Assembly: GCF_003334335.1 (NCBI RefSeq) | Contig: NZ_QOWQ01000011.1 | Origin: Escherichia coli | GTDB lineage: Bacteria > Pseudomonadota > Gammaproteobacteria > Enterobacterales > Enterobacteriaceae | DNA length: 64,000 nucleotides | Direction: 5' to 3' (one strand) | In this document: piece after piece, positions 21,585-27,598 of the stretch | Layout: the number at the start of each line of letters is the position of its first letter | How positions within the stretch are numbered: position 1 is the stretch's first letter | Translations under genes and position numbers: made by a program | Notes under the pieces: generated by a model | The model's input: only the letters and a program-made list of their open reading frames with translations | Told to the model about the DNA's origin: nothing | The model's database searches: none

Positions 21585-21995
21585 ATGAAGTGGCAACAAC
21601 GTGTTCGTGTCGCAACGGGTCTAAGTTGCTGGCAGATTATGTTGCATTTACTGGTAGTGGCGCTGCTGGTGGTGGGCTGGATGAGTAAGACTCTGGTTCA
21701 CGTCGGCGTGGGATTATGCGCACTGTATTGTGTCACGGTAGTGATGATGCTGGTGTTTCAGCGCCACCCCGAGCAACGCTGGCGTGAGGTGGCAGACGTG
21801 CTGGAAGAGCTGACCACGACCTGGTATTTTGGCGCAGCGCTGATTGTGCTGTGGCTGTTGTCCCGCGTACTGGAAAACAACTTTTTGCTGGCAATTGCAG
21901 GGCTGGCGATCCTTGCTGGCCCGGCGGTAGTGTCTTTGCTGGCGAAAGATAAGAAGTTACATCACCTTACGTCTAAACATCGCGTACGCCGCTGA
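21585..21995 (+). CDS. ybhQ: Inner membrane protein YbhQ
   Basis: 136 aa hydrophobic protein; its 3' end overlaps the ybhR 3' end on the other strand. Confidence 0.8.
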
Positions 21996-23063
21996 CCCTG
22001 TCGTGGCCGTTATCACCAGTAGCGGCCACAAACTATTCCACACAATATCCAGACTCGCATCCTTCAAATAAATCTGCTTGGTAATGTCCGTAAAGTGGCG
22101 AATAGGGTTAATCCACGTCAGGTTTTGCAGCCATACTGGCATGTTTTCCACCGGAGAAACGTAACCGGAAAGGAGAATGGCGGGCATCATAAAAACAAAC
22201 ACGCCGATAAACGCCTGCTGTTGTGTCGAGCAGAGTGATGAAATCAACAGACCGAATCCCACCAGCGATAAACCGTAAATCACCATCGTAAAGTAGAACA
22301 GCGCCAGCGATCCGGCGAAGGGGATTTGATACGCCCAGATACCAATCGCCAGCACAATGGTGGCCTGGAAGGTGGCGACAATTAACGCCGGTACGGCTTT
22401 GCCGATGAAGATCTGCCAGGTGGTGAGCGGCGAAACCAGTAGCTGATCGAGCGTACCTTGTTCACGTTCGCGGGCGACGGAAAGTGAAGTGACGATCATT
22501 ACGCCGATAGTGGTGATCATGGCGATCAGCGACGGCACCACAAACCATTTGTAGTCAAGATTCGGGTTATACCAGTTGCGTACCACCAGCTCGCTGTTGT
22601 TAGGTTTCGGTTTTCCTTCCAGCAGCTCCTGCTGATAATTTTTGACGATCTGTTGCAGGTAGTTGGCGGCAATTTGCGCACTGTTGGAGTTACGCCCGTC
22701 GAGGATCAACTGCAACGGCGCGGTCTGGAAGGTATCCAGTTTGCGCGAGAAGTCAGCCGGGAAACGCACCAGTAGTAACGCCTTTTGTGTGTCGATGGTT
22801 GGGCGGATCTCCTGTGGGCTTTTCAGCAGCAGCACATGGGTAAAGGCGCTGGCGCGGGCAAAACGTTGGGTCAGCTCCACCGAATGCTCGCCGTTATCTT
22901 CATCGTAGATGGCGATGGTGGCGTTAGTCACTTCCAGCGTGGCGGCGAACGGGAACAGGATCACCTGAATAAGCACAGGTAAAATCAGAATCGCGCGGGT
23001 TTGTGGTTCGCGCAGCAACGACTGCAACTCTTTGCGGATTAACGTCCATAAGCGATGAAACAT
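21957..23063 (-). CDS. ybhR: ABC-2 type exporter permease
   Basis: 368 aa, recognised. Confidence 0.92.
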
Positions 23064-23073
23064 GCTCTTCTCC

Positions 23074-24207: not shown

Positions 24208-25936
24208 TGCTATGCTCCTTATCCCAGTCGTGGATCAACTGAATAAAGGCTTGCTCCATGGTGGGATCGGGTTGCTCGTCGTTGGCCGACTGCGCTTTCA
24301 AATCATCCGGCGTGCCGCTGGCAATTAATTTCCCACGGTACACCAGGCCGATGCGGTCGCAATATTCTGCTTCATCCATAAAGTGAGTGGTGACCATCAC
24401 CGTGACGCCTTTCTCTACCATGCTGTTGATATGCAGCCAAAATTCGCGGCGGGTGAGGGGATCAACGCCGGACGTTGGTTCGTCGAGAAACAGAATGTCC
24501 GGTTCATGCATCAGCGAACAGGCCAGCGCCAGCCGCTGTTTAAAACCTAATGGCAGTTCATCGGTCGCGTGGGAGGCGATACTTTTCAGGCCAAATGCCT
24601 CGCTCATACGGGAGATTTTTTCGTTCTGCGCCCGACCGCGTAAGCCATACACACCAGAGAAAAAGCGTAAATTCTGTTCGACCGTCAGGTTGCCGTAGAG
24701 CGAAAATTTTTGCGCCATATAGCCGAGATGCTGGCGCGCTTTACCGGAACTCTCTTTCAGATCCATCCCCAGCACCAGCGCCTGGCCGGAAGTCGGCACC
24801 AGCAAACCGCACATCATCTTAAAGGTGGTCGATTTACCCGCGCCGTTTGGCCCCAGCAAACCAAAAATCTCCCCACGTTTAACGGCAAAGTTGACGTGAT
24901 CGGTGGCGGCAAAATCACCAAATTTCTTGGTCAGTTCTTTCGCTTCGATCACCGTCTCGCCGGGTGTGCCTTCTACCGTATGCAATATTGCACCCAGCGG
25001 CGATTCTGAGGTTCCGGCACCACCCAGCAAATCAATAAACGCATCTTCAAAACGCGGCGTAGTTTCGTTGATGTTGATTTCCGGCATCCCGTCGGCATGG
25101 CGAATATCGTCTGGTGTGGCCTCTTTTTTGAGGATCAGACGTACCGATTTCCCCTGAATCATGCCGTCGCTGACCTGCGGCAGTTTCAAGGCGCGTTGCA
25201 ACAGTTTGCGGTTGCCCTCGTGTGGACTCGTCATCAGAAAGCTGCGTCCGGCCATGGTTTGTGTCAGGGCTTTTGGTTCTCCCTGATACAGCAACTCGCC
25301 TTCGTTCATCAGTAACACGTCACGGCACTGCTCGGCTTCGTCGAGATACGAGGTACTCCAGAGGATTAACATCCCTTCGCCCGCCAGCTCATGCACCATC
25401 TGCCACAGTTCGCGCCGTGAGATAGGGTCAACGCCGACGCCGGGTTCATCGAGCAGCAACATTTTCGGTTCGCCCACCAGGGTACAGGCCAGGCCGAGTT
25501 TTTGTTTCATCCCACCGGAGAGCTTGCCCGCCAGGCGTCCGGTAAACGGCCCAAGAGACGTAAACTCCAGCAGGCGAGCAAAAGTTTGCTTACGTGCCTC
25601 GCCGGTGACGCTGCGCAAATCCGCGTACAGATTGAGGTTCTCCATCACCGTGAGATCTTCATACAGACCAAATTTCTGCGGCATATAGCCGAGCACGGCG
25701 TGCAGCGCGCCGTCGTTTTTGATCGGATCAAAGCCAATCACCGTGGCACTGCCGCTGTCGGGTTTCAGTAATCCCGCCAACATCCGCATCAGCGTGGTTT
25801 TACCTGCACCGTCCGGCCCCACCAACCCCGTCACATAACCGGCGTGAATGGTACAATCGAGCGGCGCGACGGCGGGCTTGTCCATGCCCGGAAAGCGTTT
25901 TTCCAGGCCGTTCAGCGTGATAACGGCATCATTCAT
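24200..25936 (-). CDS. ybhF: ABC exporter ATPase with two fused nucleotide-binding domains
   Basis: Two Walker A motifs ([18 protein letters not shown]) and two LSGG signatures; start set at [11 protein letters not shown]. Confidence 0.92.
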
Positions 25937-26927
25937 GTCCTGCCTCGTCACCGAATTGTACCGTCACTGGCATTCCCTGGCGTAACGCATCATCGGCGTC
26001 GGTCACCACAATACGCAGGCGATAGACGAGGTCGGTACGCAGATCCGGCGTTTCGACGGTTTTCGGGGTAAATTCAGCAGTCGGCGAAACGAAACCAATC
26101 TGCCCGTGATACGGCTTGTCCGGGCGACCATCGGTATAAAGCAGCACTTTGCGCCCCGGCTGGGCCTGGTCAAGATTACGTTCATCAACATAAGCGCGCA
26201 CCCACACCGGACGCGTTAGTGAAACGGTAAACACCGTGCCACCTTCATTGAGGACCGTGCCTGGCTCCACCGCGCGCGTTAACAGCGTGCCATCAGACGG
26301 GGCTATCAACGTTGAGTCCTGTAAATTCAACTCCGCCTGCGCCAGTTGCGCCTGCGCCTGTTCGAGGCTGGCTTTCGCCTGAGCGATGTCCTGTTCACGG
26401 TTACCGGAACGGTACTGACGCAATTTATCCTGTGCTGATTTCAGCGTTGCCTGCGCCTGGTCGCGCGAGGAGCGGGCATTTTCCAGGTCATTTGCCGAAA
26501 TAGTGCGGCTTTTCCACAACCCTTGCTGGCGGTTATAGAAGTTCTGCGCATAGTCATAGGCGGCTTGCGCCTGTTTCACCGCTGCGGCGGCCTGAGCGAT
26601 TTCTTCATCGCGATACCCGGCAAGCATCAGGTCATACTGCGCCTGTGCCACCGAAACACCCGCTTTCGCCTGCATCAGGGCAATCTCATACGGCTTGTGA
26701 TCCAGTTCGCCCAGCACCTGGCCCGCTTTGATAGCATCACCTTCGTCCACCGCCAGCGATTCAACGCGCCCCCCAACACGGAAACTAAGATTTACCGTAC
26801 GAATATCCACGTTGCCATACAGCGTCAGGCCGTTATCCTGGCGGCTTTGATACCACCAGTAGCCTCCGGCAACCACGGCGGCAAGTACCACTACCGCCAA
26901 TCCGATCACGACAGGTTTTTTCATCAC
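25929..26927 (-). CDS. ybhG: HlyD-family membrane fusion protein
   Basis: 332 aa, N-terminal membrane anchor, coiled-coil region. Confidence 0.92.
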
Positions 26928-27598
26928 TACAAACTCCTTTGCGATAATCCTTGCAAAATCAGGTCGATATGACAGGTCACCGTCTGGTTGATCAGTTCGG
27001 TCTTTTCTTCATCGAACGCGGTCCAGCCGGTACGTAACAGAATTGTTTCTTTGCCAAGACGGAACACCAGAATCTCACCAATCAACGCATGGGTATGAAG
27101 GATCATGCGGGTGTCATTGGCGTCGCAGCCGGTCCAGGCGGCAATCAGGCGTGTCAGGTGGCTGTGTAGCGGACTAATCACCTGTTCGTGCACCAGGTGG
27201 TAGGCTGCCGTGGGAGAGAGCTGCTCACGGGAGATAAACTTGCTGAGGTTGACGGTGTCATCCTGGGTGAGCAGCTTAATCATGTTCCTGCAGGCGCGAA
27301 GGATCAGTTCACGGATGGCAGCCCGATCAGGCTGTGGTTGCGCGAACAAGCGTTCGGCTTCCTCGGCATGCGGACGGAACTGCTCGCCAATAAAATCGGC
27401 AATCCACTGGGCGCAGGCGAGGTACAAATCTTCTTTCGAACCGAAGTAGTAGGTGATGGCAGCGATATTCTGCCCGGCCTGGGCGGCTATCTCGCGAGTG
27501 GTGGCGTTCATTCCATATTCACCAAACTGCGCCAGTGCGGCAGCAATCAGCTGTTTTTTCGCCTGTTCACCCTTGATTGTCATGGCAGGATTATTCAT
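26927..27598 (-). CDS. cecR: TetR-family transcriptional regulator
   Basis: Also known as ybiH. Start set at [16 protein letters not shown]; its stop overlaps the ybhG start. Confidence 0.9.

Follow-up and report, generated by a model that had tools for sequence, protein, structure and literature searches.

Five genes lie head to tail on the minus strand at positions 21957-27598 of the window (the whole 64,000-nt stretch of E. coli DNA analysed here), and the question they raise is whether they are expressed as one unit and what kind of pump they encode. The interval, gene names, order, strand, and protein types given by the first-pass annotation are all correct. The coordinates match exactly the RefSeq annotation of an identical strain and our own translation of the window, and the protein types agree with NCBIfam and Pfam. 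The genes are cecR (26927-27598; TetR-family repressor, 223 aa), ybhG (25929-26924; membrane-anchored periplasmic adaptor, 331 aa from ATG 26924 or 332 aa from GTG 26927), ybhF (24200-25936; fused double ABC ATPase, 578 aa), ybhS (23074-24207; ABC-2 permease, 377 aa), and ybhR (21957-23063; ABC-2 permease, 368 aa). On the plus strand, the annotation places ybhQ (21585-21995), encoding a small inner-membrane protein, convergent with ybhR, and rhlE (27827-29191), encoding an RNA helicase, divergent from cecR. By translation and annotation, the reading frames of the five genes and of ybhQ are all intact. An Rfam scan of the whole window gives no RNA family match in 21.5-27.9 kb.

This is the cecR-ybhGFSR operon of E. 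coli, already described, in which a repressor gene precedes the four genes for an ATP-driven export pump. The locus is that of K-12 cecR(ybiH)-ybhGFSR (b0796-b0792), with 53 nt differences from MG1655 over 6401 nt, three amino acid differences (YbhF V159M, YbhG N107D, and CecR A178V, the one CecR residue that differs), and an identical cecR-rhlE spacer. Apart from the annotated ybhG start (ATG, 331 aa, by PGAP; GTG, 332 aa, in the K-12 record), there is no substantive difference from K-12. The segment 21500-28500 is found at an identity of at least 90% in 5424 of 5426 complete E. coli genomes, indicating a core locus.

Published work already covers the operon and its regulator, including the regulator's crystal structure, as well as the probable TolC partnership. 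The present analysis carries little weight as discovery; its comparative details are annotation refinements and starting points for a poorly characterised pump. They comprise a conserved ybhG start, an operator/promoter footprint, a degenerate ATP site in YbhF, an ABC-2 rather than MacB permease fold, and REP-like insertions in the ybhS/ybhR spacer. Taken together, the evidence makes it very probable that the operon works as a CecR-repressed, polycistronic unit, with probable translational coupling, that encodes an ATP-driven exporter.

Control region of cecR

CecR scores 416.6 bits against the NCBIfam CecR equivalog NF008587 (cutoff 365; residues 6-218), which identifies it as a member of that equivalog. 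It is near-identical to the solved CecR structure 9i1x (E=1e-147, residues 1-223) and to 1t33. The gene shares a 228-nt control region with rhlE, its divergent neighbour in 68 of 80 loci. According to the literature, the CecR site lies in this spacer, rhlE is under positive control of CecR, and CecR senses cephalosporins and chloramphenicol (PMC12998191).

A perfect inverted repeat of 10+4+10 nt, TCTTAATCAA-TCAT-TTGATTAAGA, at 27611-27634 (core, 27613-27632) is a candidate CecR operator. It is positioned 12 nt upstream of the cecR ATG and abuts the candidate -10 element. Across 61 loci, the 20-bp core, TTAATCAATCGATTGATTAA, shows 90-100% conservation, with variable flanks. The core pattern has a sole perfect match in the 64-kb window; allowing up to three mismatches gives 3 matches, where 0.25 are expected, and the two additional ones each carry 3 mismatches.

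The candidate -35 element, TGGACA (27655-27660, minus strand), lies in a block, aCTgGACAag, that is conserved among 61 aligned Enterobacterales upstream regions; this conservation is mainly confined to Enterobacteriaceae, and the element reads TTTACA in Yersinia, Hafnia, and Edwardsiella. The candidate -10 element (27632-27639, minus strand) is a CaTAAt block, conserved in the 61 loci, that lies immediately 5' of the palindrome; it could be read as CATAAT (27634-27639; 15-nt spacer) or as TAATCT (27632-27637; 17-nt spacer). Judged by position and conservation, these two blocks are probably the promoter elements of cecR. A CecR dimer bound to the 20-bp palindrome, against the -10 element of its own promoter, would block all five genes. 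Inducers, for which the literature names cefoperazone and chloramphenicol, would free CecR from the operator, and its release would yield one polycistronic mRNA.

Gene junctions and co-transcription

Comparison of the operon across relatives, as the first-pass annotation had proposed, finds ybhG-ybhF-ybhS-ybhR colinear in 80 Enterobacterales loci wherever the contig reaches. cecR is upstream of these genes in 72 of the 80, and is missing in some relatives.

The junctions had been described as mostly overlapping. This is so with the K-12 GTG start of ybhG, but not with the ATG start conserved across species, with which two of the four junctions overlap. At the cecR/ybhG junction, TAGTGATG, the K-12 GTG gives a 1-nt overlap with the cecR stop codon, and the PGAP ATG gives a 2-nt gap; comparison of this junction in related loci indicates that ATG 26924 is the conserved start. 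The ybhG stop and ybhF start, ATGAATGA, overlap by 8 nt (25929-25936, minus strand). Of about 80 related loci, 41 have exactly this 8-nt overlap, and within Enterobacteriaceae an overlap is present in most loci. Outside Enterobacteriaceae, both cecR/ybhG and ybhG/ybhF are separated by short gaps. The ybhF stop and ybhS start, ATGAGTAA, also overlap by 8 nt (24200-24207, minus strand), and an overlap (-1 to -17 nt) is present in 75 of 79 loci. An AAGGAG Shine-Dalgarno motif for ybhS sits within the final ybhF codons; the apparent conservation of this end is slightly inflated, since it is spanned by IHDWDKEH, one of the peptide patterns with which the loci were retrieved. The ybhS/ybhR junction, TAG-GGAGAAGAGC-ATG, has a 10-nt spacer (23064-23073) that carries GGAG. 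None of the related loci overlaps here, apart from one value of -31 (L024); this value was ignored together with junction values of -1737, -82, and -1011, all probably artefacts of automatic start picking. In many relatives REP-like repeats lengthen the ybhS/ybhR spacer to 50-394 nt, and it appears to be a recurrent site of such insertions. Thus, two junctions undoubtedly overlap, a third does so with only one of the two ybhG starts, and the fourth has no overlap.

Two alternative in-frame upstream starts were considered. The sequence differs in relatives at ATG 27610, which is not the homologous start of cecR, and the in-frame GTG 25951 of ybhF is not the start matched at the homologous position. 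Since neither is matched in relatives, the annotated starts of both genes are kept.

At ybhG/ybhF and ybhF/ybhS, both the downstream start and its Shine-Dalgarno motif are located in the upstream ORF, and this arrangement is conserved. Because ybhF and ybhS start 8 nt inside the preceding genes, with Shine-Dalgarno motifs in upstream coding sequence, ribosomes ending one gene would probably feed the next. ybhR would be translated from its own Shine-Dalgarno motif after the 10-nt spacer; tight coupling is not needed there, since the genes do not overlap and, in relatives, the spacer can hold as much as 394 nt of REP-like repeats.

It is unlikely, on balance, that the five genes are anything other than one simple unit. 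On the contrary reading, internal promoters or RNA processing, notably at ybhS/ybhR or before ybhG, would give segment-specific expression, and the junction overlaps would reflect genome compaction without coupling. The non-overlapping ybhS/ybhR junction fits such a division, with its own GGAG and, in many relatives, inserts of REP-like sequence; REP elements can stabilise the parts of an mRNA that lie upstream of them. Compaction is also consistent with the rest of the window, where overlaps are common in other operons: the whole-window annotation has overlaps of 1-14 nt at nine further same-strand junctions, among bioB/F/C/D, moaC/D, moeA/B, glnP/Q, mntR/ybiR, ybhP/clsB, and clsB/ybhN. The tight packing of cecR-ybhGFSR is therefore real but ordinary for bacterial operons. 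In addition, knockouts of ybhG and ybhF are reported to differ in drug phenotype (PMC7190983).

Against this division, the overlap class of ybhG/ybhF and ybhF/ybhS is conserved across genera, with the Shine-Dalgarno motifs in the upstream ORFs, and the junctions leave no room for terminators. A generic sigma-70 scan finds no consensus minus-strand promoter in 21400-27900, which is weak evidence that allows internal promoters, because the scan also misses the cecR promoter itself, owing to its 15-nt spacer. The literature treats the genes as a single operon controlled by CecR (PMC12998191, PMC5934670), and its description as one CecR-repressed operon (these two papers and PMC7190983) cites Yamanaka et al. 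2016 throughout.

At the far end, the convergence of ybhQ with overlapping 3' ends, seen in the first pass, is borne out: ybhQ and ybhR overlap by 39 nt (21957-21995), and the overlap has the same length in 38 related loci. YbhQ has four hydrophobic segments and no NCBIfam family match. A terminator scan finds no intrinsic terminator on the minus strand after ybhR and before ybhP. ExcludonFinder is reported to list ybhQ-ybhR among convergent excludons derived from RNA-seq (PMC12288877).

Adaptor, ATPase, and permeases

YbhG scores 605 bits against NCBIfam PRK03598 (cutoff 393), contains the Pfam domains HlyD_D23, HlyD_3, and Biotin_lipoyl_2, has a single N-terminal hydrophobic helix (residues 6-24), and matches EmrA and MacA structures, as expected of an HlyD/MFP periplasmic adaptor. 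Held by this one helix, YbhG would bridge to an outer-membrane channel, probably TolC. In accordance, YbhG is reported to be destabilised in a tolC knockout and to co-purify with TolC (PMC6056769).

YbhF is composed of two PF00005 domains (residues 25-165 and 346-489). Both halves have canonical Walker A and Walker B motifs. Only NBD1 has a canonical signature (LSGGM), that of NBD2 being degenerate (LPLGF), and only NBD2 has the H-loop histidine (TTH), which NBD1 lacks (WSTSY). This asymmetry is invariant in 79 orthologues and makes YbhF a two-cassette ABC ATPase with one degenerate composite site. A single YbhF chain would therefore provide the two ATPase domains of the exporter, one of its ATP sites being consensus and the other degenerate.

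YbhS and YbhR, with six predicted helices each, both match PF12698 and PF01061 (ABC2_membrane_3, 5e-39, and ABC2_membrane, 4e-22, for YbhS; ABC2_membrane_3, 5e-51, for YbhR), as well as ABC2_membrane_2. The AlphaFold2 model of YbhR is of moderate confidence (pLDDT 72). Its best PDB fold matches by Foldseek are ABCH-9C, ABCA3/4/7/1, ABCG, KpsM, and NosY, and the 50 matches listed, of 688 with E<=10, are all ABCH, ABCA, ABCG, KpsM, NosY, or ABC type-2 chains. The model places a periplasmic domain between TM1 and TM2; we assume that YbhS is arranged similarly, with a periplasmic domain after TM1. As modelled for YbhR, the permeases have a predicted ABC-2 (type V, ABCH/ABCA-like) fold, not a MacB fold, and YbhS and YbhR would form a heterodimeric ABC-2 membrane unit.

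What the pump exports bears on a second alternative, that its natural role is to export a lipid or some other component of the envelope, antibiotic phenotypes being side activities. Lipid transporters, namely insect ABCH-9C with ceramide and members of the ABCA family, are the top solved fold matches of YbhR, and YbhF has a hit to the ABCA4 'rim protein' model as well; substrate, however, is not told by fold similarity. The neighbouring genes ybhP-clsB-ybhN, in which clsB encodes a cardiolipin synthase, adjoin the operon in Enterobacteriaceae only, whereas the pump operon is more widespread, so that this adjacency may be plain synteny. Tetracycline and ethidium phenotypes are reported for the pump (PMC7190983), and the reported drug phenotypes as a whole cover chemically varied compounds (PMC7190983; Chem Rev 2021 review), as side activities might; but the reported sensing of cephalosporins and chloramphenicol by CecR (PMC12998191) argues against a lipid role. 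We consider such a role decidedly unlikely. An elaborated form, in which YbhGFSR is mainly a trans-envelope exporter of lipid or envelope components, with drug efflux secondary and output possibly gated by antisense interference from ybhQ, is highly doubtful. It draws on the ABCH/ABCA-like fold, the invariant degenerate YbhF ATP site, and the clsB adjacency, and the gating would act through the conserved 39-nt convergent overlap and the absence of a terminator after ybhR.

Membership of YbhFSR in the MacB/FtsX family (type VII), into whose section the Chem Rev 2021 review puts it, and which would agree with an HlyD-type adaptor and probably TolC (PMC6056769) as partners, as for MacB, and with a periplasmic domain after TM1, has a negligible chance and is rejected on the Pfam and fold evidence: both permeases carry ABC2_membrane_3, ABC2_membrane, and ABC2_membrane_2; FtsX and MacB periplasmic-core domains are absent from both even at E<=10; no MacB chain is among the 50 fold matches listed of 688, a set of 50 that contains every one of the 34 at E<=0.001; and the same sentence of the review calls ybhF the adaptor gene, when the adaptor is ybhG.

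Comparison with known systems

The best NCBIfam match of YbhF (517 bits), YbhS (227 bits), and YbhR (183 bits) is RbbA (NF033858), of the yhiI-rbbA-yhhJ system. YbhF aligns to the NBD region of the model, and YbhS and YbhR to its C-terminal ABC-2 permease region. RbbA carries two ATPase domains and one permease in a single chain of ~909 residues, whereas YbhF, YbhS, and YbhR are encoded by separate genes with overlapping junctions. Since none of these scores reaches 1050, the cutoff of the equivalog, the three proteins are paralogues of RbbA rather than RbbA itself; identity with the equivalog is rejected on the scores and the separate chains. An HlyD-type adaptor gene also accompanies yhiI-rbbA-yhhJ, but we know of no TetR regulator attached to that operon.

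The exporter resembles MacAB-TolC in combining an ATP-driven inner-membrane transporter with an HlyD-family adaptor, and a TolC partnership of YbhGFSR is likely. Matches of YbhG to the MacA model and to MacA structures range from 1e-8 to 1e-15. MacB, however, is an FtsX-type protein with four helices, whereas YbhS and YbhR belong to the ABC-2 type, have six predicted helices, and lack the FtsX domain. MacB also has its NBDs fused and forms a homodimer.

By sequence and by fold, YbhR is best matched by the type V exporters ABCH-9C, the ABCA family, DrrAB, and KpsMT-KpsE, with which it has in common an extracytoplasmic domain between TM1 and TM2. ABCH-9C matches YbhR at 9e-14 by phmmer and 1.5e-13 by Foldseek (TM 0.65). 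DrrA and DrrB subfamily models match YbhF, YbhS, and YbhR, and KpsMT likewise operates with a periplasmic adaptor. The eukaryotic type V relatives differ in that NBD and TMD are fused and that there is no adaptor or outer-membrane partner, and identity to them is only 9-20%.

In its regulation, the operon is like TetR/tetA and AcrR/acrAB, with a TetR-family repressor that is released by the drug pumped or sensed and a palindromic operator, here a candidate, at the repressor's own promoter. It differs in that cecR is the first gene of the pump operon and is not divergent from it. The divergent partner of cecR is instead rhlE, reported to be activated by CecR (PMC12998191).

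Gene layout and junctions of the cecR-ybhGFSR unit

The exporter unit is composed of five genes arranged head to tail on the minus strand: cecR (26927-27598), ybhG (25929-26924), ybhF (24200-25936), ybhS (23074-24207), and ybhR (21957-23063). These coordinates come from the RefSeq annotation of an identical strain and direct translation of the window; the annotation also places ybhQ on the plus strand (21585-21995) and rhlE divergent from cecR (27827-29191). Annotation, translation, and domain searches indicate that the exporter unit proposed in the first-pass annotation is real and was rightly interpreted. 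The finding is already known: three later papers (PMC12998191, PMC5934670, PMC7190983) credit Yamanaka et al. 2016 with describing cecR-ybhGFSR as an operon under negative control by CecR. The window is E. coli chromosomal DNA. Of the 5426 complete genomes of this species, 5424 carry the region 21500-28500 at 90% identity or higher, nearly always as a single copy, and a 6.4-kb stretch differs from K-12 MG1655 by 53 nucleotides and three amino acids.

At the cecR/ybhG junction (TAGTGATG), two starts for ybhG have been annotated (26922-26929). The K-12 MG1655 record uses a GTG, giving 332 aa and overlapping the stop of cecR by 1 nt; PGAP, the RefSeq start call, uses an ATG, giving 331 aa and a 2-nt gap after cecR. 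The ATG, not the GTG, is conserved across related species, and we therefore consider it the true start. The ybhG/ybhF (ATGAATGA) and ybhF/ybhS (ATGAGTAA) junctions overlap by 8 nt each, with GAGG and AAGGAG motifs positioned within the upstream coding sequences, and ybhS and ybhR are separated by a 10-nt spacer (TAG-GGAGAAGAGC-ATG). The earlier description of the junctions as mostly overlapping is thus right in substance, given the two 8-nt overlaps, but slightly generous, as ybhS/ybhR is spaced and the ATG leaves a gap at cecR/ybhG. The convergence of ybhQ with overlapping 3' ends holds as well, since a 39-nt tail-to-tail overlap with ybhR is read from the sequence. The ybhQ-ybhR pair is among the convergent excludons defined by RNA-seq (PMC12288877). 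The same list includes another pair that converges within the window, ybiO/rlmF, with a 4-nt overlap (40232-40235). Nine further same-strand junctions in the window overlap by 1-14 nt (bio, moa, moe, gln, mntR-ybiR, and ybhP-clsB-ybhN units), so the compactness of cecR-ybhGFSR is not unusual.

Elsewhere in the window, Rfam matches a Moco riboswitch upstream of moaA (13867-14011), IS009 (799-997), naRNA4 (34543-34613), and ES036 (CssrF) three times (12561-12602, 29265-29307, and 54592-54634), one of the three located between rhlE and ybiA. The stretch at ~939-4072, adjoining ybhB, carries genes for an IS2 transposase and an AraC-family regulator along with three transposase/integrase pseudogene fragments, and looks like a strain-variable insertion region.

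Conservation across Enterobacterales

The first-pass annotation had proposed comparing the operon among relatives. One YbhF scan of species-representative genomes returned 80 Enterobacterales loci, from Escherichia to Yersinia, Serratia, Photorhabdus, Providencia, and Edwardsiella, and ybhG-ybhF-ybhS-ybhR is colinear wherever the contig reaches. In these 80 loci, cecR lies upstream in 72, rhlE is divergent in 68, and ybhQ is present in 46, all from Enterobacteriaceae-like genera. In Escherichia sp. ESNIH1, cecR is cleanly absent (locus L028, 3986-4513), and the rhlE-ybhG spacer of ~207 nt retains only the last few cecR bases with the ybhG Shine-Dalgarno motif. In the fetched Pectobacterium and Dickeya loci (L068, L070, L072, L074, and L075), no homologue of cecR was found anywhere. 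The pump in these bacteria would have to be under another form of regulation or none.

The ybhF/ybhS overlap is found in 75 of 79 loci. The 8-nt ybhG/ybhF overlap is found in 41, and the junction is an 8-15-nt gap in Yersinia, Photorhabdus, Xenorhabdus, and several Serratia. In related loci, ybhS and ybhR never overlap, except for one probable start-picking artefact, and theirs is the only operon junction that takes insertions among the loci fetched. Where E. coli has its 10-nt spacer (23064-23073), many Enterobacteriaceae have REP-like palindromic repeats (GCCCGGTGGCGCTGCGCTTACCGGGCCTAC type) that span 50-394 nt (long spacers in L012, L015, L018, L019, L023, L026-L029, L031, L034, L038, and L048); that of Superficieibacter electus contains a 47-nt unit in 6.1 tandem copies (L019, 8376-8660).

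The ybhR/ybhQ overlap has the same 39-nt length in 38 loci, and of its two reading frames, that of the YbhR tail is more strongly conserved. No intrinsic-terminator-like site was found on the minus strand at 21452-21957, between ybhR and the co-oriented genes ybhP-clsB-ybhN. Operon transcripts must cross ybhQ in antisense. In Salmonella, a sigma-E site located between ybhP and ybhQ has been reported from ChIP-seq.

Protein families and the ATP sites of YbhF

The protein types named earlier (TetR regulator, HlyD-type adaptor, double ATPase, and ABC-2 permeases) are borne out by domain searches. CecR scores 416.6 bits with the curated CecR equivalog model, above its cutoff of 365, and is virtually identical to 9i1x, a solved structure of CecR. 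YbhG passes the PRK03598 HlyD model, with HlyD_D23, HlyD_3, and lipoyl-like domains and a single N-terminal hydrophobic helix, and matches structures of EmrA and MacA. YbhF has two ABC_tran domains, and YbhS and YbhR are ABC2_membrane_3/ABC2_membrane proteins in which a search for an FtsX domain found none. The AlphaFold2 model of YbhR, of moderate confidence (pLDDT 72), best matches the insect lipid transporter ABCH-9C (TM 0.65), followed by ABCA, ABCG, KpsM, and NosY chains; the 50 fold matches listed include no MacB chain. In a 2021 review (PMC8277102, section 5.7), YbhFSR is grouped with MacB/FtsX and ybhF is given as the adaptor gene. The ABC-2 domains and fold matches of the permeases argue against the former, and the domain results give ybhG as the adaptor.

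The H-loop of NBD1, the first ATP-binding cassette of YbhF, lacks its histidine (WSTSY, residues 193-197), and the signature of NBD2 is degenerate (LPLGF/Y, residues 461-465). Both defects are invariant in 79 YbhF orthologues. Because a head-to-tail NBD dimer puts the two defects in the same composite site, YbhF would have one degenerate, probably weak ATP site and one consensus site. The one YbhF/YbhFSR paper searched makes no mention of a degenerate site.

A candidate CecR operator and the proposed mechanism

The cecR-rhlE spacer, which is the same in the window and K-12 MG1655, contains a perfect 10+4+10 inverted repeat (27611-27634) 12 nt 5' of the cecR ATG, and its core has its sole perfect match within the window there. 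In an alignment of 61 upstream regions anchored on the palindrome, conservation of the core TTAATCAATCGATTGATTAA reaches 90-100% and the flanks vary. Blocks at -10 and -35 distances stand out as well (CaTAAt, and CTgGACA mainly within Enterobacteriaceae), the latter reading TTTACA in some more distant genera. The palindrome is thus a candidate CecR operator, predicted to overlap the transcription start region of the cecR promoter. Papers citing Yamanaka et al. 2016 attribute to that study a CecR binding site in this spacer and positive control of rhlE by CecR (PMC12998191). An in-frame ATG (27608-27610) directly abuts the palindrome, four codons 5' of the start annotated for cecR. It is found in Escherichia loci and is probably not used, because other genera have a different sequence there.

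YbhG has been linked to TolC by thermal proteome profiling and affinity purification (PMC6056769). For YbhFSR, phenotypes with tetracycline and ethidium have been published, as has a claim of Na+/H+ activity (PMC8277102, PMC7190983), and mutations in cecR and ybhR are reported to appear under CCCP selection. The mechanism we propose draws directly on anatomy, domain families, and conservation, and on the literature for CecR repression, drug release, and the TolC link. According to the literature, CecR represses the operon until released by drugs, and YbhG probably partners TolC. Repression may proceed by promoter occlusion at the palindrome. The 8-nt overlaps at ybhG/ybhF and ybhF/ybhS may couple translation, the core would comprise YbhF, YbhS, and YbhR at 1:1:1, and one ATP site of YbhF would be catalytically weak. 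An operator at cecR's own promoter, as we infer here, would be the classical TetR arrangement.
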